Source: a bacterium
Lineage (GTDB): Bacteria > UBA8248
DNA: 64,000 bases
Direction of reading: 5' to 3'
NCBI GenBank assembly: GCA_965199855.1
Contig: OZ241326.1
Coordinates: forward strand, 1,312,001-1,376,000
The notes under the pieces were generated by a model. The model did no database searches, was not told the DNA's origin, and worked only from the letters and a program-made list of their open reading frames with translations. Both the position numbers and the translations under genes were made by a program. Shown piece after piece: positions 17,966 to 36,275 of this stretch (within the stretch, counting starts at the first letter, position 1; each line of letters opens with the position of its first letter).

Positions 17966-18955
17966 GTGGCCACCGGGGCGAGGAGAAGGGCGGCGAAGCC
18001 CAGGAAGCTGACGAAGAAGGACCTGGACGGCATGTATCGCAACATGCTGCGGATTCGCCGGTTCGAGGAGAAGACCGACGAGTTCTTCATGGCCGGCCGG
18101 GTGAAGGGGGCGGTTCACGTGAGCATCGGGCAGGAGGCGTGCTCGGTGGGGGTGTGCGCCGCCCTGACCGAGGAGGACGCCATTCTCACCACCCACCGGG
18201 GCCACGGCCACTCCATCGCCAAGGGCACGCGGATGCCCGAGATGATGGCCGAGCTGCTGGGAAAATCCACCGGCCTCTGCAAGGCGCGCGGCGGCTCCAT
18301 GCACATCGCCGACATCTCGAAGGGCCACTACGGGGCGCACTCCATCGTGGGGGCGAACATGCCGATGGCCACCGGCATGGGCCTCGCCTACCAGCTGGAG
18401 GGCCGGGGGCGCGCGGCGGTGGTCTTCTTCGGCGACGGCGCCTCGAACCAGGGAAGCTTTCACGAATCCATGAACCTGTGCGCCATCTGGAAGCTGCCCG
18501 TCATCTTCTTCTGCGAGAACAACCACTACGCGGTGAGCTATCACGTGGAGCGCTCCACCGCCGTCCGGGACATCAGCGTGCGGGCGCAGGGCTACGACTC
18601 GCCCGGGGTGACGGTGGACGGCATGGACGTGGCCGCCGTCTATGAGGCCACGGCCGAGGCCGTGCGCCTAGCGCGCGCGGGGGGCGGCCCCAGCCTCATC
18701 GAGGCGAAGACCTACCGCTTCTTCGGCCACTCGCGGGGCGACCCCCAGTTCGGGCCGTATCGGACGAAGGAGGAGGTCGATGAGTGGCGCAAGCGCGACC
18801 CCCTCGCGGTCGCGGAGAAGATGCTGCGCCTCACGGAGGCGCGGAAGAAGGCGCACCTGGAAGCCGTGGACGAGGAGCTGGCCGAGGCCATCGCCTTCGC
18901 CGAGCGCAGCCCGGAGGCGACGCTCGAATCGGCGCTCGAGGACGTGTATGCCTGA
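17966..18955 (+). CDS. TPP-dependent dehydrogenase E1 alpha subunit (AcoA/PdhA-like)
   Basis: IRRFEE, GQEA, THRGHGH, GGSMH, FGDGASNQG, ENNHY, TYRFFGHS. GTG start after GGAGGAGG (the ORF is open from 17891). Confidence 0.93.
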   Translation: MATGARRRAAKPRKLTKKDLDGMYRNMLRIRRFEEKTDEFFMAGRVKGAVHVSIGQEACSVGVCAALTEEDAILTTHRGHGHSIAKGTRMPEMMAELLGKSTGLCKARGGSMHIADISKGHYGAHSIVGANMPMATGMGLAYQLEGRGRAAVVFFGDGASNQGSFHESMNLCAIWKLPVIFFCENNHYAVSYHVERSTAVRDISVRAQGYDSPGVTVDGMDVAAVYEATAEAVRLARAGGGPSLIEAKTYRFFGHSRGDPQFGPYRTKEEVDEWRKRDPLAVAEKMLRLTEARKKAHLEAVDEELAEAIAFAERSPEATLESALEDVYA

Positions 18956-19062
18956 GCGTCTCCATCGCCCGGCGAAGGCTTTGCGAATCGAGGCGCCGGG
19001 GGAGGCCGGCCGGGGCGATCGCCGCGAATTTCCGAGTCCGTAGAAAATCCCGGAGGGGCGAC

Positions 19063-20043
19063 ATGCGAGAGATCACTTTTGGGGAAGCGCTGAACGAGGC
19101 CCACCACGAGGAGATGGAGCGCGACGAGCGCGTCATCGTCCTGGGCGAGGACGTGGAGCTGGCCTACGTCTTCGGCGTGACGAAGGGCCTGGCCGAGAGG
19201 TTCGGCAAGGAGCGCGTGCGCGACACCCCCATCAGCGAGCTCGGCATCGTGGGCGCGGGCGTGGGCGCGGCCATGGCGGGCTACCGCCCCATCATCGAGA
19301 TCATGTTCATGGACTTCATCATGCTGGCGATGGACCCCCTCATCAACCAGGCGGCGAAGCTGCGCTACATGCTGGGCGGACAGCTGAGCGTGCCGCTCGT
19401 CGTGCGCACCCCGAGCGGCGGGGGCGTGCAATACGGCCCCACGCACAGCCAGTGCCTGGAGGCGTGGTTCATGCAGATGCCGGGCATCCGGGTGGCCGTC
19501 CCCAGCGACCCCGCCGACGCGAAGGGGCTGATGAAGGCGGCGGTCCGCGACGACAACCCCGTGCTCCTCGTCGAGCACAAGATGCTCTACAAGATGAAGG
19601 GCGCCCTGCCCGAGGGCGACCGCGTCCTCCCCTTCGGCCAGGCCGCCGTGAAGCGCGAGGGCGGCGACATCACCCTCATCGGCGTGGGCTACCAGGTCCA
19701 CAACTGCCTCGCGGCGGCCGAGACGCTGGAGAAGGAGGGCGTGAGCGCGGAGGTGGTGGACCCCAGGACGCTCGCCCCCCTCGACACCGCGGCCATGGCC
19801 GAATCCGTCCGCAAGACGAGCCGCTGCGTCATCGTCGAGGAGGGGCATCTGCGCAGCGGGGCGGGCTCCGAGATCGCGGCGGCGGTTCAGGAGGAGGCGT
19901 TCGACTATCTGGACGCCCCCATCGGCCGCGTGGCCGCCCTCGAGGCGCCCATCCCCTTCGAGCCGCGCCTCGAGGACTTCGTGCTGCCCAACGCCGCCAA
20001 CGTCGTCGAGGCCGCCCGCAAGGCGCTGGGAGCCGTGGTTTAG
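19063..20043 (+). CDS. TPP-dependent dehydrogenase E1 beta subunit (AcoB/PdhB-like)
   Basis: LGEDV, DTPISE, EIMFMDF, HSQ, DPRTLAPLD, LDAPI.RV. Confidence 0.94.
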   Translation: MREITFGEALNEAHHEEMERDERVIVLGEDVELAYVFGVTKGLAERFGKERVRDTPISELGIVGAGVGAAMAGYRPIIEIMFMDFIMLAMDPLINQAAKLRYMLGGQLSVPLVVRTPSGGGVQYGPTHSQCLEAWFMQMPGIRVAVPSDPADAKGLMKAAVRDDNPVLLVEHKMLYKMKGALPEGDRVLPFGQAAVKREGGDITLIGVGYQVHNCLAAAETLEKEGVSAEVVDPRTLAPLDTAAMAESVRKTSRCVIVEEGHLRSGAGSEIAAAVQEEAFDYLDAPIGRVAALEAPIPFEPRLEDFVLPNAANVVEAARKALGAVV

Positions 20044-20209: not shown

Positions 20210-21535
20210 GTGCTTCGTCAAGCCGTTTTCGTCATTCTGGCCGTCCTGGTTCTCGCGGCCGGCGGGTGGGCGACGAGGTGGCTCGTTCTGAACCAGCCCG
20301 TCGCCAAGGTCGCCGCCCCCCCCGCTCCGCGCCGGATCGTGCGCGTCATGCGCCTCAAGAAGCAGGACAGGACGCTCTGGGTGAAGGGCTACGGCTCCGT
20401 GCGGCCCAAGACGGAGCTCTCCGTCGCGCCCCAGGTCTCCGGCCGGGTGGTGAGGCGCGCCCCCGGCTTCAGGACGGGCGGCTTCATCCGGAAGGGGGCG
20501 CTGCTCTTCCAGATCGACCCGGCGGACTACCGCCTCGAAATCGAGCGGCGCAGGGCGGAGATCGTCCGGCTCGAGGCGGACGCCGCCCGCCTCGATCAGG
20601 AGGAGAAGAACTACGACGCCGACCTCGCCATCGCCGAGCGGCACATGAAGGTGGTGAGCGAGGAAGTGCGGCGCAACAGGAGGCTCAGGGGGCAGGGCGT
20701 CATCTCCGCCGGCCAGTATGATCAGTCGCGCCGGAGTTTTCTGCAGCAGGAGATGACGGTTCAGTCCATCCGCAACGCCTTGGCGCTCCTGCCCGTCCGG
20801 CGGATGCAGAAGCGCGCCGCGCTGGAGGCGAGCCGCGCCGCGCTCAGGAAGGCGCGCCTGGAGCTCTCCCGCGCGAGCGTCCGCGCCCCCTTCGACGCGC
20901 GGGTGCGCGAGACGAGCCTGGACGTGGGCGACTTCGCCAGCGCGGGCAGGCCGGTGGGCGTCATCTACGACGTCTCGGCGCTCGAGGTTCCGGTGTCGCT
21001 CCCGGTCGAGGACGCGCGCTGGGCGCTCCCGCGGGCGCGGGGCGCGCTCTTTCCGCGCGACGGGGAGGGGGAGAAGCCCCCCCTGCCCGCCGCCCGGGTG
21101 TCCTGGAGCCGGCTCGGCAGGAAATTCGAGTGGGAGGGCCGCGTCTCCCTCGTGGAGGCCGGGCTGGACGCCTCCACGCGCGCCCTCACCCTCGTGGTGG
21201 AGGTGTCCGAGTCCGCGGAGAGCCGCGCGTCCGGCGAGCGCCCTCCCCTGTTCGTGGGCATGTTCGTTCAGGCGGCGATCGAGGGGGCGGCGCTGCGCGG
21301 CGTGTTCGTGATTCCGCGCGCCGCCCTGCGCGCGGAGGACCGCGTCTATCTCCTGGATGAGGGCAGGCTGCGGATAGCGAAGGCCGAGGTCGTCCGCAAG
21401 GAGGAGGAGGGCGCGGTGATCCGGGGCGGCGTGAGCGAGGGCGACCTGCTCATTCTCTCCCCCGTTCCCGACCCGATTCCCGGCATGAGGCTCGAGGCGC
21501 GCGCCGGGGACGCCGCCGGAGGCGCCGCGCGATGA
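20210..21535 (+). CDS. RND efflux periplasmic adaptor (membrane fusion protein)
   Basis: N-terminal TM, APQVSGRV, coiled coil, VRAPFD, LFVGMFV. Confidence 0.9.
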   Translation: MLRQAVFVILAVLVLAAGGWATRWLVLNQPVAKVAAPPAPRRIVRVMRLKKQDRTLWVKGYGSVRPKTELSVAPQVSGRVVRRAPGFRTGGFIRKGALLFQIDPADYRLEIERRRAEIVRLEADAARLDQEEKNYDADLAIAERHMKVVSEEVRRNRRLRGQGVISAGQYDQSRRSFLQQEMTVQSIRNALALLPVRRMQKRAALEASRAALRKARLELSRASVRAPFDARVRETSLDVGDFASAGRPVGVIYDVSALEVPVSLPVEDARWALPRARGALFPRDGEGEKPPLPAARVSWSRLGRKFEWEGRVSLVEAGLDASTRALTLVVEVSESAESRASGERPPLFVGMFVQAAIEGAALRGVFVIPRAALRAEDRVYLLDEGRLRIAKAEVVRKEEEGAVIRGGVSEGDLLILSPVPDPIPGMRLEARAGDAAGGAAR

Positions 21536-24500
21536 GCGGCTTCATCGCCTGGAGCGCCCGCAACACCGTCTTCGCCAACCTGCTGATGAGCATCCTCATC
21601 GTCGTCGGCGTCGTCGCCGTCTTCCAGATCAGGAGCGAGCTGCTCCCCCAGTTCGCCCTCGACAGGGTGAGCGTGAGCGTGGCGTGGGAGGGCGCCAGCC
21701 CCGAGGAGGTGGAAGAGGGCGTCTGCATCAAGATCGAGGAGGCGCTCACCGGCGTGGAGGGCGTGAAGAAGATCACCTCCATCGCCTACGAGCAGCGCTG
21801 CTCCGTGATGGTGGAGCTCTACGCCTGGGTGAAGAACCCCCGGGAGGCGATGGAGGACATCAAGAGCGAGATCGACCGCATCCGCACGCTTCCCGCCGAC
21901 GTCGAGAGCCCCGTCGTCACCGAGGTGAAGCGCGTCAACCAGGTCGTCCACGTCTCGCTTTACGGAGACGTTCCCGAGCGGCTGCTCAAGCGCCGGGCCA
22001 TCGAGATCAAGGACGAGCTCATCGACATTCCCGACATCTCCCGAATCGTGACGCGCGGGCTGAGGGAGTGGGAGATCTCCATCGAGGTCTCCGAGGAGTC
22101 CCTCCGCCGCCACGGCCTCACCTTCGAGCGGCTCTCGGACGTCATCCGCAGGAACGTGCTCGAGCTCTCGGGCGGGGACATCCGCTCGCCCGAGCGCAGA
22201 ATCCGCATCCGCACGCTGGGCAAGCGCTACACGGGGCGCGAGTTCGAGCGCCTCGAAATCCTCACCCGCGAGAACGGGGCGGTTCTCCGGCTCGGCGACG
22301 TCGCCCGCGTGGTGGACGGCTTCGAGGACAGCGACAGGACGGGGCGCTTCAACGGGAAGCCGGGCGCGCTCGTCACGGTCATGCGCACCGAGGAGGAGGA
22401 CGCCGTCGCCATCGCCGGGAAAGTGGATGAATACGTGAAGAAAAAGCGCGCGGAGCTGCCCGAGGGGCTGCATATCGACTCCTGGGCGGACGTGTCGCGC
22501 CTGATCAGGGACAGGCTCAGCCTGCTTCTTCGCAACGGGCGCATCGGCCTCGTCCTCGTCTTCCTCTCGCTGTGGCTGTTTCTGAACATCCGCCTCTCCT
22601 TCTGGGTGGCGATGGGCATTCCCGTCGCCCTGCTGGCCTCGCTCGGGTTCCTGAGCTTCTCCGGCGGCTCGCTCAACATGCTCACCATGTTCGCCTTCAT
22701 CATGGTGCTGGGCATCGTGGTGGACGACGCCATCGTCGTGGCCGAGAACATCTACTCCCACATGCAGCGGGGAAAGCCGCCGGTGCAGGCCGCCATCGAC
22801 GGCTGCCTCGAGGTGCTGCGGCCGGTGACGGCCACGGTCGTTACCTCCATCGTCGCCTTCATCCCCCTGATGATGATCGAGGGAACCATCGGGAAGTTCA
22901 TGGCGGTGCTTCCGGCGGCCATCATCGCCGCCCTCATCGCCTCCCTCATCGAGTCGCTCTTCGTTCTGCCGGCGCACCTGGGCCACTGGGTGCGCCCGCC
23001 CCGGGAGCGCACGATCGCCGCGCGGCTCCGGGGCGCCGTGGACGGGGCGATGGACTGGCTCATCCACGTCTGCTACGCGCGGATTCTGCGCTTCTGCCTG
23101 AGCGCGAGATACCTCGTCGTCGCCCTCGCCGTGGCGACCTTCATGGTGACGATGGGGCTGGCGATAGGCGGGCACGCGCGCTTCCTGTTCTTCCCGAAGT
23201 TCGACTCGGACTTCATCGAGTCCAGGCTCCTGTTTCCGCAGGGAACCCCGATTGAGCGCACGCGCGCCGCGGCGCGGCGCATCGAGGCGGCGGCGCTCTC
23301 GCTCAACGAGTCGCTGCGCTCGAAGACGGGCGAGCCGGTCGTCCGGAAGGTGTTCACGGCGCTGGGCGAGCAGGTGGGCGAGGGCGGCAGGAGCGTCGGA
23401 CAGGGAAGCCACACGGCGCAGGTCATCGTAGAGCTGCTGCCCTCGGAGGACAGGGGAATCGCCTCGGAGGAGATCACCGCGCGCTGGCGCGCCGGCGCGG
23501 GCGAGGTGGCCGACGTCATCAGCCTCACGTTCGGCTCCTCGCGGAACCGGCCGCTCGGCGGCAAGGCCATCCAGGTGCAGTTCTACGGCGAGGAGGTCGG
23601 GCCGATCCGCGGCGCGGCGCTCGCCCTCCGCGAGCGGCTGCGGAAATACCCGGGCGTCTATGAGATTCAGGACGACTTCCGCCCCGGCAAGTTCGAGTTC
23701 CAGGCCTCGCTCAAGCCGCAGGCGCGCTCGCTGGGCGTGAGCCTGGAGAATCTGGCGCGGCAGCTGCGCGCGCGCTTCTTCGGGCTGGAGGTTCTGCGCC
23801 TCCAGCGCGGGCGCGACGACGTGAAGGTGAAGCTGCGCTATCCGCCGGAGGAGCGGCGCTCCCTGGAGGACGTGCGGAACGCGAGAATCATCACCGCCTC
23901 GGGCGCGGAGATTCCCTTCGGCGAGGCCGCGGAGGTGAGGATCGTCCGGGGGCTGGACGAGATCAAGCGCGTGGACAGGCGGCGGGTGGTCACCGTGACG
24001 GCCGACGTGGACCCCGACCGCGCCAATCCCACCGAGGTGATGAACGACCTGCGGGCGAATTTCCTGCCCGGCCTCCCAGGGCGCTTCGAGGGGGTGCGCT
24101 TCCGAATCGAGGGCCACGCGAAGGAGACGAAGGACTCGACCGCCAGCCTGTTCCGCGGCTTCGCCCTCGCGGCGGCCATCATTTTCGCCGTCCTCGCCAC
24201 GCTGTTCCGAAGCTACTTCCAGCCCCTGATCGTGATGAGCGCCATTCCCTTCGGGATCGTGGGCGCGATATGGGGACACATCATCATGGGCTACGACATC
24301 TCCATCCTGAGCATGATGGGCATCGTGGCGCTCTCGGGCGTCGTGGTGAACGACTCCCTCGTGCTGCTGGACTTCGCGAACCAGCGCGTCGCGGACGGCA
24401 TGGAGGTCGAGGAGGCGCTCCATCTGGCCGGCGTCTCCAGGTGGCGGGCGGTGATTATCACGACGCTCACGACGGCGGCGGGGCTGGGGCCGATGATGCT

Positions 24501-24717
24501 CGAGCGCAGCTTCCAGGCGCAGTTCCTGGTGCCCATGGCGATCAGCATGTGCTTCGGCCTGCTGTTCGCCACGGTCATCACCCTCGTCCTCGTCCCGGTG
24601 ATCTCCCTCATCGGAAACGACGTCGGGCGCCTTTGCTGGCGCGTCCGCGCGGGCGCGTGGCTGACGAGGGAGGAGGTGGACGCCCACTCCCCGCAGAGAG
24701 TACGGGCGCGCGCCTGA
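21532..24717 (+). CDS. RND efflux permease (AcrB/AcrD/AcrF family)
   Basis: 1061 aa with two TM clusters; GIVVDDAIVVAEN, GVVVNDSLVL. Confidence 0.94.
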   Translation: MSGFIAWSARNTVFANLLMSILIVVGVVAVFQIRSELLPQFALDRVSVSVAWEGASPEEVEEGVCIKIEEALTGVEGVKKITSIAYEQRCSVMVELYAWVKNPREAMEDIKSEIDRIRTLPADVESPVVTEVKRVNQVVHVSLYGDVPERLLKRRAIEIKDELIDIPDISRIVTRGLREWEISIEVSEESLRRHGLTFERLSDVIRRNVLELSGGDIRSPERRIRIRTLGKRYTGREFERLEILTRENGAVLRLGDVARVVDGFEDSDRTGRFNGKPGALVTVMRTEEEDAVAIAGKVDEYVKKKRAELPEGLHIDSWADVSRLIRDRLSLLLRNGRIGLVLVFLSLWLFLNIRLSFWVAMGIPVALLASLGFLSFSGGSLNMLTMFAFIMVLGIVVDDAIVVAENIYSHMQRGKPPVQAAIDGCLEVLRPVTATVVTSIVAFIPLMMIEGTIGKFMAVLPAAIIAALIASLIESLFVLPAHLGHWVRPPRERTIAARLRGAVDGAMDWLIHVCYARILRFCLSARYLVVALAVATFMVTMGLAIGGHARFLFFPKFDSDFIESRLLFPQGTPIERTRAAARRIEAAALSLNESLRSKTGEPVVRKVFTALGEQVGEGGRSVGQGSHTAQVIVELLPSEDRGIASEEITARWRAGAGEVADVISLTFGSSRNRPLGGKAIQVQFYGEEVGPIRGAALALRERLRKYPGVYEIQDDFRPGKFEFQASLKPQARSLGVSLENLARQLRARFFGLEVLRLQRGRDDVKVKLRYPPEERRSLEDVRNARIITASGAEIPFGEAAEVRIVRGLDEIKRVDRRRVVTVTADVDPDRANPTEVMNDLRANFLPGLPGRFEGVRFRIEGHAKETKDSTASLFRGFALAAAIIFAVLATLFRSYFQPLIVMSAIPFGIVGAIWGHIIMGYDISILSMMGIVALSGVVVNDSLVLLDFANQRVADGMEVEEALHLAGVSRWRAVIITTLTTAAGLGPMMLERSFQAQFLVPMAISMCFGLLFATVITLVLVPVISLIGNDVGRLCWRVRAGAWLTREEVDAHSPQRVRARA

Positions 24718-24821: not shown

Positions 24822-25921
24822 ATGCCTTCGCGGTTCGACGTTCGCTACGGCGAGGAGGTGGGGGACAGGATGGAGGCGGTCGTGATGACCGCCCCCGGCG
24901 AGCTCGAGGTCCGGTCGGTTCCCGTCCCCGAACCCGATATAGGAGAAGTCCTCGTCAAGGTGGAATGCGCGACGATCTGCGGCACGGACGTCGAGATTAT
25001 CAAGGGAAGCCACCTTCCGCGCTGGCCGCCCCGCCTGCCGGCGATTCTGGGGCACGAGTGGGCGGGGAGAATCGTCGCCATGGGCCCGATGACCGAGGGC
25101 TTCGGCCTCGAGATGGGCGACGCCGTGGCGGGGACGAGCCACGCGGGCTGCGGCGCCTGCCGCATGTGCCTCATCGGCCGCTACAACCTCTGCTTCAACT
25201 ACGGAAACGAGGCGACCGGCCACAGGCAATACGGGCACGTCTCGCAGGGCGCCTACGCGGAGTACGTCGCCAACAACGTCCGCGCCCTGCACCGGATGCC
25301 CGAGGGAATGTCCTTCGAGCATGGCTCGGCGGTGGACCCGGCGGGTTGCGGCCTGTGGACGGCGAAGCGCGCGGGCGTCAACCCCGGCGATACGGTCGTG
25401 GTGCTGGGCTCGGGGCCCATCGGCGTCTTCGCCTACGAGTCGGCGCGCGCGCTGGGGGCGGGCCGCGTCATCGTCGTGGGCGGCGGCAGGCGGCTCGAGA
25501 TTCTGGCGGAGCAGGGCGCGGAGGTCGTGAACTACCGGGAGGGCGGCGTGCCCGAGCGCATCGGGGAGATGACCGAGGGCGCGGGGCGAACGTCGTGCTC
25601 GAGACGGCGGGCTCCACGGAGAGCTTCAAATGGAGCGTGGACTGCGGCGGCAAGGGGGCGCGCGTGGCCATCACCGGCATCCCGGAGAACATCCCCGACC
25701 TGGCGTGGAGGCGCGTGGTGCTCGAGGAGATGGATGTATTCGGGGTGCGGGCGAACCCGAACTGCGGGGACGAGGCGATAGCCCTCATCCACGCGGGCAG
25801 AATCCGGGTGGACCCCTACGTCACGCACCGCTTCGCGCTCAAGGACTACCAGGAGGCGCACGACGCCTTCGCCGCGCGCAGGGACGGCGCCCTGCTCGTG
25901 AACCTCACGCCGGGAGCCTAG
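24822..25921 (+). pseudogene. Zn-dependent alcohol/threonine dehydrogenase-like gene with a single frameshift near 25577 (pseudogene or sequencing indel)
   Basis: ICGTD, GHEW, C..C..C.......C and GSGPIG in one frame. GRGANVVLETAG...THRFAL continues in the -1 frame. Adding one G to GAGGG (25575-25579) restores ...MTEGRGANVV... Confidence 0.8.
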
Positions 25922-25927
25922 GCGAAA

Positions 25928-26329
25928 ATGGCGCAAGACGGGATGAAATACGGCGCGAGGATGATAGCGGAGGCCAGGCTCGAGACCGCGCCGAACCCCT
26001 CGAAGGGGCGCGACTACGTCGTCGAGTTCGAGATTCCCGAGTTCACCTGCCTCTGCCCGATCAGCAATTTTCCCGACTTCGCGACCATTCGCGTCAAATA
26101 CGTCCCGGCGGAGAAGATCGTGGAGTTGAAATCTCTCAAACTCTACATCAATAATTACCGGGATCGGGAAATTTTCCACGAGCAGGCGGTGACCGAGATT
26201 CTGGGCGACCTGGTGGCGGCCTGCGCGCCCAGGTGGGCGTGGGTGGAGGGCGACTTCAACGTGCGCGGAAACATCAAGACCCGCGTTCGCGCCGCCCACG
26301 GCGAGCGGCCGCCGGGGGCGCCCGAGTAG
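25928..26329 (+). CDS. queF: NADPH-dependent preQ0 reductase (7-cyano-7-deazaguanine reductase), type I
   Basis: PEFTCLCP...PDFA, VELKSLKLY, FHE, FNVRG. Confidence 0.94.
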   Translation: MAQDGMKYGARMIAEARLETAPNPSKGRDYVVEFEIPEFTCLCPISNFPDFATIRVKYVPAEKIVELKSLKLYINNYRDREIFHEQAVTEILGDLVAACAPRWAWVEGDFNVRGNIKTRVRAAHGERPPGAPE

Positions 26330-26431
26330 GGGCGCGGCCGGAGGGCGGGCGAACCGGAGGGGCTCCCGCGCGAATGCGGGGAAAATGGGAAAAGCGAGAA
26401 TCTTTCAGCCGCATATCTCCATGAGGTGAAC

Positions 26432-28681
26432 ATGACGGACTACAAGGTGGCGGGCCTGGGCCACGCCCGAATCGACGCGCCGGACAAGGCGGCCGGAAGC
26501 GCGCAATACGCGGCGGACGTGCCCTCGGGCCGCGCGCTGACGGGCCTCGTTCTGGGAAGCCCGCACGCTTACGCGAAGGTCAAGAGCGTGGACGCCGCCG
26601 AGGCGCGGCGGGTCCCCGGCGTCCGCGCCGTTCTCACGCGCGAGGAGGCGCCCCGCATCCGCTTCGGGGCGAACATCAAGGATCAGAGCTGGTTCGCCCA
26701 GGACGGCTTCGTCCGCTACGGCGGGGAGCCGGTGGCCGCCGCCGCCGCCGAGGACGTGGACGCCGCCCAGGCGGCGCTCGAGCTGATTCGCGTGGAATAC
26801 GAGCCGCTCGAGCCCGTGGTGGACGGCCTTGCGAGCCGCGCCGGGGAGGGCCTCGCCGTCCACGAGGACTGGCGAAAGCTGAACCTCGGCCCGGGCGGGA
26901 AGAAGAACGTCATCGCCCGCTTCGAGAAGGAAATCGGGGACGCGGACGCGGGCTTCCGCGAGGCGGATCGCGTCTTCGAGCACGCCTTCTCCACCCCGTT
27001 CGTCCACGCCGGCTACATCGAGCCGCACGCCTGCGCGGCCGAGGCGGGCGCGGACGGGAAGGTCACCATCTGGACGACCACCCAGGACGCCTGGGCGATC
27101 CGCGCGGACGTGGCCGAGGCGCTCGGGGTTCCGGCGACGCGGGTGCGCGTCGTCCCCACGGAGATCGGCGGCGGCTTCGGCGCGAAGCTCAAGAGCGTCT
27201 ATGAGCACATCGCCGCGCTTCTGGCGCTCAGGACGGGCCGCCCCGTGCGCATGGAGATGAGCCGCGAGGCGGACCACGCCGGCGTGAACCCCAGGCATCC
27301 GCACTTCATCACCATCCGCACGGGCGTGAAGAACGACGGGACGCTCACCGCGCGCGAGCTCGACGTCACGATGGATCACGGCGCCTACGGGCGGGGGGCG
27401 CCGTTTCAGTGCAGCAGCAAGATGCTCATGGGCTCCTCCTCCTACCGCATTCCCAACGTGCGGATTCGCGCCTGCACCGTCTACACCAACGGGCCCGTCT
27501 GCGGCCCGGTGCGCGCCCCGAGCGGCCCCCAGTATCACTTCGCCACCGAGGTGCAGATGGACATCATCGCGCGCGAGATGGGCATCGATCCCCTGGAGAT
27601 CAGGCGAATCAACGCGCTGCGCCCCGGGGACGAGACGCTCGCCGGCGCGGAGGCGAACCCCTCCATGCGCGGCGTGCTCGACTCGACGGCGGCCGAGAGC
27701 CGGTGGGGCGGACGCCCCGAGGCGAACGGCGCGCTCGAGGGCGAGGGCTGGAAGCTCGGGCGCGGCATCGCCTGCGGCTACTGGCCGGGGCCGGGCGAGG
27801 CGTCCAGCTGCTCCGCCCGCCTGAACCAGGACGGCACCGTCCACGTGATCGCGGGGACGGTGAACCTCACCGGCATGAGCACCTCCATCTGCCAGCTGGC
27901 GGCGGAGGAGCTGGGCGTGAGCCTCGACGCGGTGCGCTACGTGAGCGGCGACACGGATTCCGTACCCGAATCCTCGGCGGCGTCGGGCAGCAAGGCGACG
28001 CGCGCGGTGGGCATGGCGGCGCTCGCCGCGGCGCGCGACCTGCGCGAGAAGATTCTGAGCGTGGCGGGCGTTGCGCTCGAGGCGTCGGCGGACGATCTGG
28101 TTCTCGAGGACGGGCGGGTGAAGGTCGCCTCGGCGCCGGATCGCTCCCTCACCCTCGCGGAGGCGGCGCAGGCGGCGCCCGCGATTCAGGGGTTCCTCAT
28201 CGGGCAGGGCGAGAGCGCGAAGCCGCCCCCGTGTCCGATACACACCGCGCAGGTGGCGGACGTGGCCGTCCACCCCGAGCTCGGCGAAATCCGGGTGCTG
28301 CGCCTCACGTGCGTGCAGGACGTGGGCTTCGCCATCAACCCGCTCTCCGTGGTCGGGCAGATCGAAGGCGCGATGCTCCAGGGGCTGGGCCTCGCCCTCA
28401 TGGAGGAGCAGCCCCGCCGCCCGGACGGAAACCTCCACGGCGAGACCCTGCACGAATACCTCCTCCCCACGAGCATGGACGTGCCGGAGCTCCGCGCCGT
28501 CCTCTACGACAACCCGGCCGAGGACACGCCCTACGGGATGCGGGGGGTGGGGGAGCCGCCCATCGTGGCGACGGCCGCCGCCATCGTGAACGCGATTCAG
28601 GACGCCGTGGGAGCCCCCGTGTTCTCCCTGCCCGTCGGCCCCCACCACATACGCGAGGCGCTGGCGGGGAGCGGCGCGTGA
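26432..28681 (+). CDS. Xanthine dehydrogenase/CoxL family molybdopterin-binding large subunit
   Basis: VRYGGEPVA, HAGYIEP, IGGGFGAK, active-site loop PVRAPSGPQ, QIEGAMLQG, RGVGEPP. GAGGTG RBS. Confidence 0.93.
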   Translation: MTDYKVAGLGHARIDAPDKAAGSAQYAADVPSGRALTGLVLGSPHAYAKVKSVDAAEARRVPGVRAVLTREEAPRIRFGANIKDQSWFAQDGFVRYGGEPVAAAAAEDVDAAQAALELIRVEYEPLEPVVDGLASRAGEGLAVHEDWRKLNLGPGGKKNVIARFEKEIGDADAGFREADRVFEHAFSTPFVHAGYIEPHACAAEAGADGKVTIWTTTQDAWAIRADVAEALGVPATRVRVVPTEIGGGFGAKLKSVYEHIAALLALRTGRPVRMEMSREADHAGVNPRHPHFITIRTGVKNDGTLTARELDVTMDHGAYGRGAPFQCSSKMLMGSSSYRIPNVRIRACTVYTNGPVCGPVRAPSGPQYHFATEVQMDIIAREMGIDPLEIRRINALRPGDETLAGAEANPSMRGVLDSTAAESRWGGRPEANGALEGEGWKLGRGIACGYWPGPGEASSCSARLNQDGTVHVIAGTVNLTGMSTSICQLAAEELGVSLDAVRYVSGDTDSVPESSAASGSKATRAVGMAALAAARDLREKILSVAGVALEASADDLVLEDGRVKVASAPDRSLTLAEAAQAAPAIQGFLIGQGESAKPPPCPIHTAQVADVAVHPELGEIRVLRLTCVQDVGFAINPLSVVGQIEGAMLQGLGLALMEEQPRRPDGNLHGETLHEYLLPTSMDVPELRAVLYDNPAEDTPYGMRGVGEPPIVATAAAIVNAIQDAVGAPVFSLPVGPHHIREALAGSGA

Positions 28682-28716
28682 AGCCCGTCCGAACCTTCCT
28701 GTGAGGAGAGAATCCC

Positions 28717-29382
28717 ATGCCCGTGGACGAAGCGACGAGCCTGCCCGACAGCCTGGGCGTGACCGACGAGATGATGGCGTGTCCGCTGCCGCGCCTGCCC
28801 TTCGTCGCGCCCGAAGCCGTGCCCGATGAACTGAAGGAGGAGCTCGACCCCCTCTATGCGTGGGCGAAGCGGATGTGGGGCACCGTCCCGCGCTTCCTCC
28901 AGCTGCTGGGAAATTCGCCCCCCACCGTGGAGGGGTGGATGCTGCTCGACCAGAAGCTGCGCACGAACCGTCTGAAGACGGAGCCGGACTACATCCGCCT
29001 CATGGAGCTCGTCATCGTCAAGACGGCCATCCTCACGGAGTGCAACAACTGAATCGGGCACAACGTGGAGCTCGGTCGGGCTCTGGGCCTCAGCCAGGAG
29101 CAGATCAACCTGCTCGAGGGCGACGGCTGGCGGGACAGCGAGGCGTTCGACGAGAAGGAGAAGGCCGTCGTCCGGTGGGCGGACGAGGTCTCGAAGCTCA
29201 CGGCGAAGAACAACGACTTCGCCTTCGCCGAGATGAAGAAGCACTTCACCGATCGCCAGATCGTGGAGCTCACCTTCATCTGCGGCATGTGGCACCTCTC
29301 GGGCAGGCTCGCCGAGGCGCTTCACCTGGTGGTGGAGCCTCCGGGCGGGCGCATCGAATTTCAGAAAGAGGACATGGCGTAG
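28717..29382 (+). CDS. AhpD/carboxymuconolactone-decarboxylase fold selenoprotein (CxxU, Sec112)
   Basis: ORFs 28717-29052 and 29065-29382 share a frame, separated by TGA 29050-29052. Read-through gives ELVIVKTAILTE-C-N-N-U-IGHNVELGRALG, with U at the second Cys of the AhpD CxxC..H motif. SECIS-like hairpin follows. Confidence 0.88.
29068..29083 (+). promoter_or_regulatory. Putative bacterial SECIS element
   Basis: GAGCTC-GGTC-GGGCTC hairpin; loop G at +22 after the UGA. Confidence 0.7.
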
Positions 29383-29569
29383 GCGGCCGGTTCCGGCTCC
29401 CTCCGAACCGTTGACGGCGCATGGGGGCGAACCGCCCCGCAATCCCTCCTCCCTGTCGCGCCCGTTTTGACGCCGGAGGGACGGAGGCGCGCGCCGCCGG
29501 CGCATTGCCCGCCTGATGGAAAAACAAAGGCTTAAGAGGTTTTTTTGATGAAAAAGGATGAAAAAAGCG

Positions 29570-29597
29570 TTGCATTTTCCGAAAAATCGGCTATACT
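29570..29597 (+). promoter_or_regulatory. Putative sigma70 promoter with AT-rich upstream region
   Basis: TTGCAT, N16, TATACT, preceded by A/T tracts at 29521-29566. Confidence 0.55.
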
Positions 29598-29671
29598 CGC
29601 CCGCTTTGTCGCGCCGCCTCCGGCGAAAGCGGGGCGCGCGCGCATCGGGCCGCCCACGCAGCGAGGACGAC

Positions 29672-29842
29672 ATGATCGAATTGAAGGATGACAGCGCAGC
29701 CGTTCTGAACCGGGAATTTTTCGCGGAGGCCGGAGACGCCCTCCCCGCCGATCTCGCCGACTATGACGCGCCGGACAAGGGAGCGGGCGAGTACGCCTCC
29801 ATCCTGAGCGACGGCGAGGGGGGAGTCGCCCCCGCCTCGTAG
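29672..29842 (+). CDS. Small acidic hypothetical protein (56 aa)
   Basis: GAGGA RBS before ATG 29672; own promoter and terminator; MIELKDDSAAVLNREFFAEAG... Confidence 0.55.
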   Translation: MIELKDDSAAVLNREFFAEAGDALPADLADYDAPDKGAGEYASILSDGEGGVAPAS

Positions 29843-29863
29843 CGGCGCCTCCCGTCGAGGGAG

Positions 29864-29908
29864 AAAAAGACGACGCCCGGCCGCTTCCATCGGCCGGGCG
29901 TCTTTTTT
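29864..29908. terminator. Intrinsic (probably bidirectional) terminator
   Basis: GACGCCCGGCCG-CTTCCAT-CGGCCGGGCGTC-TTTTTT with an upstream AAAAA. Confidence 0.85.
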
Positions 29909-34704: not shown

Positions 34705-34868
34705 GGCAGAGCGGGCCGCGTCCGCGCCAGAGGCCCGGCAGGTCGGAAGCGCCGGCCTGCCGCCCGCCGCCGCGCCGGGGCGGCCGCGTTTGGCAGGAGG
34801 ATGAAGCCTCTGGTCTAATGGCCGCGAACTTTCGTCCGAAAAAAGCGGGCGCGTCCGAAGGAGGGGGC

Positions 34869-36275
34869 ATGGCGGCGTTCGACCTGGCGATCATCGGCGG
34901 GGGGCCGGCGGGCTACGTGGCGGGCGTGCGCGCGGCGCAGCTGGGAGGGAGGTGCGTCGTCGTCGAGCGCGACGAGCTGGGCGGCACCTGCCTCAACTGG
35001 GGCTGCATTCCCAGCAAGAGCCTGATCGCCGCGGCCGAGGTGTTCCGGAGCGTCAAGCGCGCGGAGCGCTACGGCATCGAGATTCCGGGCGGGGCGCGCG
35101 CCGATCTGGCCGCCATGGTGGCGCGCAAGGACGGAATCGTCGCCGGGCTGGTGAAGGGAATCGGCGCGCTGTTCCGCGCCCACGGGGTGCGCCATGTCGC
35201 GGGCGAGGCGGAAATTTCGGCCCCCGGCGAAATCCTGGTCAGGAGAAGGGACGGCGCGCGCGAGGAGATTTCCGCGCGAAAAATCATCATCGCCACCGGC
35301 TCCCGTCCCGCGCAGATTCCCGCCTTGCCCATCGACGGAGAGCGCGTCATCTCCTCCGAGCAGGCCGTGCACATGAAGCGGCTTCCGGCGAGGCTGCTCA
35401 TCGTGGGCGCGGGCGTCATCGGCTGCGAGTTCGCCTGCCTGTATCGGGAGCTGGGCGCGGAGGTCGCCCTGGTGGAGGCGCTGGATCGCGTCCTGCCGCT
35501 TGGGGACGAGGACGTCTCCCGGCTCATGGAGCGCGAGCTGAAGAAGCAGAAAATCAACGCGCGCCTGGGCGAGCGGATAGCGCGCGTCTCGCGCGAGGGC
35601 GGCGAGCTCGTCGCCGCCCTGGAGGGGGGCGGCGAGATTCGCGCGGACACAATCCTCGTCTCGATCGGCCGGACGATGAACACCGCCGGCCTCGGGCTCG
35701 AGAGAATCGGGGTTCGCCTGGGGGAGCGGGGCGAGATTCAGGTGAGCGAGAGGATGGAGACGAGCGCCCCGGGCGTCTATGCGGCGGGCGACGTGACGGG
35801 CGACCCCATGCTCGCACACGTGGCCTCGGCGGAGGGCGTCGCCGCCGCCGAGAACGCCATGGGCGGGGAGGCGCGGATGGATTACCGGGCGATTCCCGCC
35901 GGCATCTTCACGCATCCCGAAATCGGCGTCGTCGGCATGACGGAGCGCGAGGCGGCGGAGGCGGGGCGCGAGGCGCGCGTGGGCCGCTTCCCGATGCGCG
36001 CCCTGGGCAAGGCGCAGGCCGAGCGCGCCATCGAGGGGGAGGTGAAGATCATCGCCGACGCGGGCGACGACGCCATCCTGGGCGTTCACGTCGTGGGCGC
36101 GCGCGCCGCCGAGGTCGTGCACGAGGCCGCCGTCGCCATGCGCAATGGTCTGACCGCCTCCGCGCTCGCGCGGACGATTCACGCCCACCCCACCCTCTCC
36201 GAAGCCCTCATGGAGGCTGCCCACGACCTTCACGGCGCGGCGATTCACGCCCCCCCGAGGAAGACGAGGCGCTGA
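34869..36275 (+). CDS. lpdA: Dihydrolipoyl dehydrogenase (E3)
   Basis: GGGPAGY, GGTCLNWGCIPSK, IATGS, GAGVIG, YAAGD, HAHPTLSE. Confidence 0.95.
   Translation: MAAFDLAIIGGGPAGYVAGVRAAQLGGRCVVVERDELGGTCLNWGCIPSKSLIAAAEVFRSVKRAERYGIEIPGGARADLAAMVARKDGIVAGLVKGIGALFRAHGVRHVAGEAEISAPGEILVRRRDGAREEISARKIIIATGSRPAQIPALPIDGERVISSEQAVHMKRLPARLLIVGAGVIGCEFACLYRELGAEVALVEALDRVLPLGDEDVSRLMERELKKQKINARLGERIARVSREGGELVAALEGGGEIRADTILVSIGRTMNTAGLGLERIGVRLGERGEIQVSERMETSAPGVYAAGDVTGDPMLAHVASAEGVAAAENAMGGEARMDYRAIPAGIFTHPEIGVVGMTEREAAEAGREARVGRFPMRALGKAQAERAIEGEVKIIADAGDDAILGVHVVGARAAEVVHEAAVAMRNGLTASALARTIHAHPTLSEALMEAAHDLHGAAIHAPPRKTRR

Follow-up and report, generated by a model that had tools for sequence, protein, structure and literature searches.

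Contig OZ241326.1 carries, within the 64,000-nucleotide stretch analyzed here (the window; positions 1312001-1376000 of a single-contig 3.04 Mb bacterial genome, G+C of the window ~69%), a gene for a molybdenum (Mo)-binding large subunit of the xanthine dehydrogenase/CoxL family, followed directly by a gene for a selenocysteine (Sec)-containing protein of the AhpD/carboxymuconolactone decarboxylase (CMD) fold. The pairing is a real, lineage-specific and probably co-transcribed gene pair of two known protein kinds. On balance, we lean toward a reading in which the two genes are transcribed together, the Mo subunit receives its [2Fe-2S] (FeS) and flavin adenine dinucleotide (FAD) subunits in trans and the selenoprotein acts as a thiol/selenol oxidoreductase of general function, so that the pair is not a self-contained redox module. 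The Mo subunit would then draw both partners from genes elsewhere, like most of its paralogs in the lineage, with a stand-alone cluster of FAD, FeS and CoxE-like genes as the likeliest source, and the cofactor maturation factors XdhC, YqeB and YqeC would likewise be supplied from elsewhere. The seleno-AhpD would most likely act as a selenol/thiol-based peroxidase or general oxidoreductase using Sec112 and His115. A first-pass annotation of the window had instead proposed a new redox module, with the seleno-AhpD taking the place of the FeS and FAD subunits. This proposal is not borne out, given an active-site loop shared with ordinary relatives, an apparently older lone state of the Mo gene, an adjacency of single origin and an upstream neighbor, queF, that is equally faithful to the Mo gene.

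FeS and FAD genes elsewhere in the genome

As the first-pass annotation had pointed out, no FeS or FAD subunit gene adjoins the Mo gene. The window contains no match to Fer2_2 or FAD_binding_5, and the nearest match in a whole-genome search lies ~88 kb away. We took this absence to count against an operon type, not against family membership. The genome as a whole holds 10 matches to MoCoBD_1 vs four to Fer2_2 and four to FAD_binding_5. By coordinates, two of the 10 Mo genes adjoin both partners, one adjoins an FAD gene only and seven have neither within 85 kb; the Mo gene of the window is one of these seven, and the six others have no AhpD gene beside them. The same imbalance was found throughout the family, with Mo matches (4-16 per genome) outnumbering FeS matches (1-6) in 26/26 genomes from nine genera.

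Orphan small and medium subunit genes, which the first-pass annotation had suggested looking for, are present. A stand-alone cluster at C1:1994325-1998022 encodes an FAD subunit (CoxM-like, 288 aa) and an FeS subunit (CoxS-like, 193 aa), together at 1994325-1995800, and then a vWA/CoxE-like protein, and it has no Mo gene closer than 30 kb; additionally, a lone FeS gene is located at genome positions 1222767-1223375. The FeS and FAD proteins of the stand-alone cluster were the best-matching own-genome queries at most classical operons among relatives. One small-genome genus (four genomes, 2.0-2.2 Mb, 90-97% complete) showed 4-6 Mo matches and exactly one Fer2_2 match per genome. In 4/4 of these genomes, the sole FeS gene sits in an orthologous FAD-FeS-CoxE-like cluster (identities 65-66%, 80-82% and 75%) whose flanks, ~5 kb on each side, lack a Mo gene (L225-L228). 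All four also carry a Sec-AhpD of 72-74% identity, and in three of them a Mo match precedes it by ~1.1 kb on the same strand of the same contig.

These counts leave two readings: several Mo subunits share a single FeS/FAD pair supplied in trans, or they function with no such pair. The former is simpler because the catalytic and loop residues of the lone subunits are those of partner-bearing relatives. The stand-alone FAD-FeS-CoxE-like cluster is a candidate shared electron-transfer module, and its FeS and FAD proteins are the likeliest partners of the window Mo subunit as judged from gene content and location. Partners supplied in trans, one of two alternatives left standing by the first-pass annotation, are thus favored by the surplus of Mo genes over FeS and FAD genes, by the stand-alone cluster and by the single FeS gene of the four small genomes.

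A two-component enzyme in which the selenoprotein stands in for both the FeS and the FAD subunits, in direct electron exchange with the Mo center, giving a selenol-driven Mo reductase or oxidase, would fit the lack of FeS and FAD genes at the locus. It would also fit the identity of the closest characterized relative by score, a reductase (the alpha subunit of 4-hydroxybenzoyl-CoA reductase, 4-HBCR). However, the six other lone Mo subunits of the same genome do without an AhpD neighbor, a stand-alone FeS-FAD cluster is available, and both the active-site loop and the Mo phylogeny presented below speak against it, so that we consider a replacement of this kind very unlikely.

The maturation genes yqeB, yqeC and xdhC, markers of the selenium-dependent molybdenum hydroxylase trait, lie together at genome positions 2257408-2262295. 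The idea that the AhpD-like protein stands in for XdhC during cofactor maturation was set aside, XdhC, YqeB and YqeC all being encoded away from the window. A second yqeC (668673-669320) is found ~5 kb away from one of the lone Mo genes (660923-663250), with a weak match to the SelD family (665044-665787) nearby. At C1:1427304-1429642, a CoxL-like gene beside an FeS gene appears as two overlapping open reading frames (ORFs; 182 and 615 aa), maybe another frameshift besides the one described below for the alcohol dehydrogenase gene.

The Mo subunit and its active-site loop

The description of the Mo gene as a complete large subunit holds. The ORF begins with an ATG at 26432 preceded by GAGG (an in-frame alternative GTG start is found at 26426), its stop codon ends at 28681, and the 749-aa product is as long as its closest homologs. 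All three expected Pfam domains score above their cut-offs, with 76 bits for PF01315 (Ald_Xan_dh_C), 247 bits for PF02738 (MoCoBD_1) and 217 bits for PF20256 (MoCoBD_2), which together give the a/b hammerhead, MoCoBD_1 and MoCoBD_2 architecture. Residues Q220 (in TTTQ), G248-F251 (GGGFG), R363 and E710 (in GEPP) are invariant in 25 homologs of 57-91% identity. We take the TTTQ glutamine, the GGGFG segment, the loop arginine and the catalytic glutamate to play the roles described for them in the family literature. Retention of the GEPP glutamate, noted in the first pass, is further supported by the alignment of E710 with the 4-HBCR structure (Protein Data Bank, PDB, 1RM6). The Mo gene as a decaying relic was rejected, with its frame intact and its catalytic residues invariant across 57-91% identity.

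Comparison with NCBIfam gave 13 models that match end to end, and 0/13 reach their cut-offs. The best match is 4-HBCR alpha (TIGR03194) at 451 bits vs a cut-off of 994.55, and the protein falls below the cut-offs of the named equivalogs 4-HBCR alpha, XdhA, PucD, glyceraldehyde dehydrogenase alpha, PaoC and CoxL. Nor is it a member of TIGR03311 (294.8 vs 830.45 bits) or TIGR03313 (274.1 vs 1101.9 bits). By these features, the protein is best described as an intact and catalytically competent large subunit of the xanthine dehydrogenase/CoxL family, to which we assign no substrate.

The subunit carries the loop GPVRAPSGPQ together with GVGEPP. This loop had been called atypical in the first-pass annotation, a view that comparison with relatives does not uphold. 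The 25 sequences of the close clade all keep R363, P365 and P368, and the loop arginine (R363), like E710, aligns with 1RM6, where it lies opposite the arginine of MRGHG. We tabulated the loop in all 80 loci of the genome scan described in the next section. At 29 of the 33 loci with FAD and FeS genes immediately upstream of the Mo gene, R-A-P occupies the same loop; the sequence is YRAPG(A/T)PQ in 25 of these 29, and FRAPSGPQ and YRAPSGPQ are found among the rest. Because 29/33 Mo subunits of classical operons have R-A-P, the loop is compatible with ordinary FeS/FAD partners, and its being common to the Mo subunits of classical three-subunit operons also argues against a replacement of these partners by the selenoprotein. 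The R-A-P-x-x-P-Q loop is the mark of a family branch whose members normally function with ordinary partners, and it is linked neither to AhpD nor to the lone state of the Mo gene.

Distribution and origin of the pairing

Within the genus, 21/22 genomes carry an ortholog of the Mo gene (84-91% identity), and all 21 loci read queF-Mo-AhpD; the best Mo match in the twenty-second genome (93% complete, 280 contigs) has 58% identity. A wider scan used one genome per species and kept 80 of 583 confirmed Mo loci. Neighboring genes were detected by tblastn with the FeS, FAD and AhpD proteins of the genome under study (E 1e-4 to 1e-6), queries sensitive enough to pick up partners in other phyla at 28-55% identity. 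Mo-AhpD adjacency was found at 23/80 loci, with Mo identities of 61-91%. Twelve loci (57-64% identity) lack all three of AhpD, FeS and FAD genes within 5 kb, and the same holds for five loci with the same phylum label (39-45%); the remaining loci comprise one with an FeS fragment at a contig edge, six with none of these genes and 33 classical operons. Every pair locus with enough flanking sequence showed the order resistance-nodulation-division (RND) pump-alcohol dehydrogenase-queF-Mo-AhpD, often with a class II ribonucleotide reductase, even at 58-61% identity. At three loci (L073, L074 and L148), the AhpD-like gene is followed after ~1.6-2.3 kb by another, distantly related Mo subunit gene (36-37% identity).

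The reverse comparison started from 80 metagenome loci of the AhpD subfamily, 65 of which have at least 500 nt of upstream flank. A Mo gene lies upstream at seven of the 65, all of them Sec-type and all in the same gene block. No Mo gene was found upstream at the other 58 (18 Sec-type and 40 Cys-type). AhpD homologs that are not beside a Mo gene have lineage-specific sets of neighbors with no common partner, in a comparison made noisy by its use of stop-to-stop ORFs, and the complete genome of another genus of the family has no AhpD ortholog at E 1e-30.

In a quick maximum-likelihood tree of AhpD proteins, the Mo-adjacent genes fall into one clade with an approximate likelihood ratio support (SH-aLRT) of 93, composed of 24 Mo-adjacent members, one member without flanking sequence and L150, which has no Mo gene in the 6 kb upstream. 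The closest AhpD paralog in the genome (61%) belongs to a different, unlinked clade. A FastTree phylogeny of the Mo proteins likewise placed the AhpD-linked genes in a clade (support 0.946), which includes one gene without AhpD (L079). Below this clade branch its sister L081, also without AhpD, then a clade of lone genes (clade B) and then two further lone genes (L096/L103). With these AhpD-free lone relatives branching off below the AhpD-linked genes, the lone state came first, which is difficult to reconcile with the selenoprotein having replaced the FeS and FAD subunits. By these trees, the adjacency has a single origin, which postdates the Mo gene's lack of neighboring partners, and it was lost or rearranged at least twice.

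The first-pass annotation had proposed surveying Mo subunits with such loops for conserved linkage to AhpD, and had named absence of the pairing from relatives as evidence against its idea. The survey gave a divided answer. Linkage is conserved in one lineage, including 21/21 loci of the genus, and is absent from classical-operon and lone relatives, with individual close relatives (L079, L081 and L150) also lacking the pairing. Moreover, conserved adjacency alone is no sign of shared function here because the housekeeping gene queF is an equally constant neighbor.

The AhpD-like selenoprotein and its decoding signals

The AhpD-like gene is a 221-codon frame interrupted by a single TGA in the context ECNN-UGA-IGHN. 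The predicted protein matches Pfam CMD (PF02627) with 26 bits vs a cut-off of 23, and an AhpD-family profile matches PDB 2GMY (E 3.5e-18) as well as 2O4D, 2OYO, 6K40 and 6OHI, with the debrominase Bmp8 among the matches. It falls below both NCBIfam cut-offs, scoring 32 vs 81.8 bits for TIGR01926 (peroxidase-related enzyme) and 46.4 vs 310 bits for NF053654 (YciW-related (seleno)protein).

The UGA at 29050 is a genuine Sec codon because a covarying Sec insertion sequence (SECIS) follows it, homologs carry Cys codons at the same position and the genome encodes tRNA-Sec, SelB and SelD. In an alignment of 103 related loci drawn from public genomes and metagenomes, this codon reads TGA at 54 loci, TGC at 41 and TGT at eight. 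The SECIS hairpin, which was found by comparing paralogs, has the sequence GAGCUC-GGUC-GGGCUC and follows the UGA after 18 nt (+19 to +34), with nucleotides conserved even at wobble positions. In 49 distinct sequences, 98% of the stem positions are paired and 4/6 pairs have changed on both sides, a result reached by 0/500 shuffles; slid controls gave 18-54% pairing. Single-sequence RNAfold of the 61 nt after the UGA did not pick out the hairpin (z -0.6). The decoding machinery consists of one tRNA-Sec, a SelB with 371.9 bits (above cut-off) and a SelD with 344 bits that has its own in-frame TGA.

Ten matches to the AhpD-like protein were found in the genome, eight of which, including the window gene, carry TGA at the same motif position, and the GGUC-loop hairpin lies at the same distance from the UGA in 5/5 aligned paralogs. 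The seven further TGA-bearing genes are located at C1 1780048, 2070799, 3005763, 689005, 1627038, 2744694 and 208329; eight Sec-AhpD paralogs are unusually many for a 3-Mb genome. Beside the closest paralog, a 356-codon low-G+C ORF at C1:1778916-1779986 (third-position G+C 0.41 vs ~0.9 in neighboring genes) is probably foreign DNA. At two related loci (L092 and L039), the AhpD-like gene matches in two pieces, suggesting a frameshift, and L092 has an extra partial copy ~1.2 kb downstream.

Classical AhpD proteins act through a redox pair of cysteines in a CxxC motif followed by a histidine. In the present subfamily, U/C112, H115 and N116 are invariant, and the first cysteine of CxxU is serine in three Mo-adjacent orthologs (SDYU) and serine or glycine in most Cys-type homologs. 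This loss of the first cysteine weighs against the classical dithiol-type mechanism.

Junction, probable operon and surrounding genes

The AhpD-like gene follows the Mo gene after 35 nt and has its own ribosome-binding site, as the first-pass annotation had it. The equivalent spacer measures 12-48 nt and includes a Shine-Dalgarno sequence in 17/18 related loci; it is 147 nt long in one. No terminator-like site was found in the window between the pair and 29872. We infer that the Mo and AhpD-like genes, the last two cistrons of a co-directional block (Table 1), are probably co-transcribed, because the spacer is short with a Shine-Dalgarno sequence (17/18 loci) and no terminator intervenes before 29872. 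A promoter-like match at 26126-26155, inside queF, was treated as chance.

Table 1. Features of the Mo-AhpD locus (window coordinates)
Feature	Position	Strand	Details
RND adaptor	20210-21535	+	co-directional, conserved block
RND pump	21532-24717	+	co-directional, conserved block
Zn-dependent alcohol dehydrogenase	24822-25921	+	co-directional, conserved block; frameshifted in window
queF (preQ1 synthase), upstream neighbor	25928..26329	+	TIGR03139 143 bits vs cut-off 86.9
Mo-binding large subunit, xanthine dehydrogenase/CoxL family	26432..28681	+	749 aa; Pfam PF01315, PF02738, PF20256
Intergenic spacer, 35 nt	28682..28716	+	Shine-Dalgarno GAGGAG at 28703-28708; no terminator-like site
AhpD/CMD-fold selenoprotein	28717..29382	+	221 aa, ATG at 28717; motif C109-N-N-U112-I-G-H115
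UGA read as Sec, residue 112	29050..29052	+	TGA/Cys codons at aligned position; Sec machinery
SECIS hairpin	29068..29083	+	6-bp stem, 29068-29073 with 29078-29083; GGUC loop 29074-29077
Bidirectional terminator-like hairpin	29872..29902	.	strong; 12 pairs, 11 G-C; first such site after AhpD-like gene

That the two genes are neighbors only, with an inherited gene order, independent transcription or regulation and unrelated functions, would be in line with the synteny of the whole RND-alcohol dehydrogenase-queF-Mo-AhpD block wherever the pair is found with enough flank, with the mixture of unrelated functions in that block (efflux, alcohol dehydrogenase and tRNA modification) and with the 58/65 AhpD-subfamily metagenome loci that have no Mo gene upstream. 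However, the very short, terminator-free spacer leaves little room for a promoter outside the Mo coding region, and we rate this explanation as improbable.

The queF gene is single-copy (one PF14489 match in the genome) and syntenic in related loci. The alcohol dehydrogenase gene is split over two frames in the window and forms a single frame in related loci, indicating a pseudogene or an assembly indel. The region after the AhpD-like gene, 29383-29902, is A+T-richer, shows on visual inspection a promoter-like TTGCAT-17 nt-TATACT at about 29571-29600 and also holds a 94-codon ORF at 29558-29842. It could harbor a small gene or RNA, with no Rfam match; at the locus, Rfam identified tRNA-Ala only. 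The block is flanked by a 2-oxoacid dehydrogenase E1-beta-like gene and a dihydrolipoyl dehydrogenase gene (18784-20043 and 34818-36275), the latter also syntenic in two distant loci (L146 and L147). Mycobacterial AhpD is reduced via the lipoamide system, and lipoamide is a conceivable donor here as well.

A possible dedicated helper or a general oxidoreductase

With the FeS and FAD subunits still supplied in trans, the seleno-AhpD could be a specific accessory of this Mo enzyme, one that might scavenge peroxide or another reactive product formed at the enzyme, hold the sulfido ligand of the cofactor or a residue of the active site in reduced form, or act further on the product. Such a helper would account for the operon-like spacing kept in 17/18 loci, for the grouping of all Mo-adjacent AhpD genes in one clade whose adjacency is kept across several genera and for the survival of this adjacency through upstream insertions and downstream changes. 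However, the adjacency has a single origin, the conserved block around it keeps single-copy queF just as constantly, and Mo genes without AhpD are nested in the linked clade (L079) or sister to it (L081). Conversely, L150 belongs to the AhpD clade with no Mo gene in the 6 kb upstream, none of the seven other Sec-AhpD paralogs of the genome lies near a Mo gene, and three Mo-adjacent orthologs have lost the first cysteine of CxxU. Considering both sides, we hold a dedicated helper to be possible and rather unlikely.

The preferred reading, partners in trans and a general oxidoreductase, has to be set against several observations that sit less well with it. The pair is kept across Mo identities of 60-91%, despite insertions of ~0.8-1 kb between queF and the Mo gene (L073 and L076), and is also kept where the downstream genes differ. 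The cohesion of the pair thus seems to exceed somewhat that of the rest of the block, which would suit a functional link. Additionally, the peroxidase-type activity is proposed from family resemblance, for a protein that stays under both NCBIfam cut-offs.

In a broader and more speculative scheme, the 4-16 lone Mo subunits of each genome in this family would be interchangeable and would all rely on one stand-alone FAD-[2Fe-2S] module and one central maturation cluster. The Mo and Sec-AhpD operon would be one such cartridge, with the selenoprotein as its dedicated partner that protects or recycles the active site or the product. We regard this scheme as a long shot.

Relation to known systems

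By score, the best characterized relative of the Mo subunit is HcrA, the 4-HBCR alpha subunit, which matches end to end (PDB 1RM6, E 2.8e-84). The window protein differs from HcrA in its NCBIfam score, far below the 994.55-bit cut-off, in its loop (VRAPSG vs MRGHG in HcrA) and in its genomic setting, since the name of HcrA marks it as part of a multi-subunit enzyme and the present locus has no gene for a partner. The many Mo genes per genome, with a function unlinked to CO oxidation, resemble the expansion of coxL-like (COG1529) Mo subunits seen in lineages of uncultured symbionts, and Tectomicrobia are reported to average 29 coxL genes per genome (PMC8941161). In contrast to the present case, the accessible part of that account does not discuss lone Mo subunits that share one FeS/FAD module or an AhpD neighbor.

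The selenoprotein is a sound annotation and brings no novelty in itself because AhpD-like CxxU selenoproteins are already catalogued, as the AhpD-like 1 and AhpD-like 2 families (CxxU; COG2128/pfam02627) of Zhang and Gladyshev (PMC2398784, PMC1794560). Compared by description only, the window protein shares with these families the CMD/AhpD fold, the CxxU motif and Cys homologs, and differs in that the first cysteine is often serine or glycine in its subfamily, leaving only the Sec/Cys of CxxU invariant. The best profile matches of known structure, Atu0492 (2GMY), PA0269 (2O4D) and AhpD (6K40), align over the Cys/Sec-x-x-His core with E values of 3.5e-18 to 1.3e-07. Unlike these Cys proteins of 145-197 aa, the seleno-AhpD has a conserved N-terminal extension of ~35 residues and Sec. 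None of the molecule names of the CMD/AhpD structures links to a Mo enzyme.

Selenium-dependent molybdenum hydroxylases belong to the same superfamily as the Mo subunit, and yqeB and yqeC, both present in the genome, are marker genes of that trait (Haft and Self 2008, PMC2276186). In those enzymes, selenium is a labile cofactor ligand, whereas here it resides in the neighboring selenoprotein. We found no description of a Mo-AhpD pairing in the literature searched on AhpD selenoproteins, xanthine dehydrogenase and coxL, in agreement with the first-pass annotation, to which the pairing was also new.

Significance

As a new redox module, the locus adds little, since both protein kinds are known and a simpler explanation is at hand for the missing FeS and FAD genes. 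What it does provide is a clean annotation, SECIS element included, of a selenoprotein truncated by gene callers. If the selenoprotein were a specific helper of the Mo enzyme, it would represent a kind of accessory factor new to the xanthine dehydrogenase family. More broadly, the whole bacterial family keeps many lone Mo subunits with as few as one FeS/FAD pair, and this imbalance makes the long-assumed sharing of subunits among molybdenum hydroxylases directly testable.

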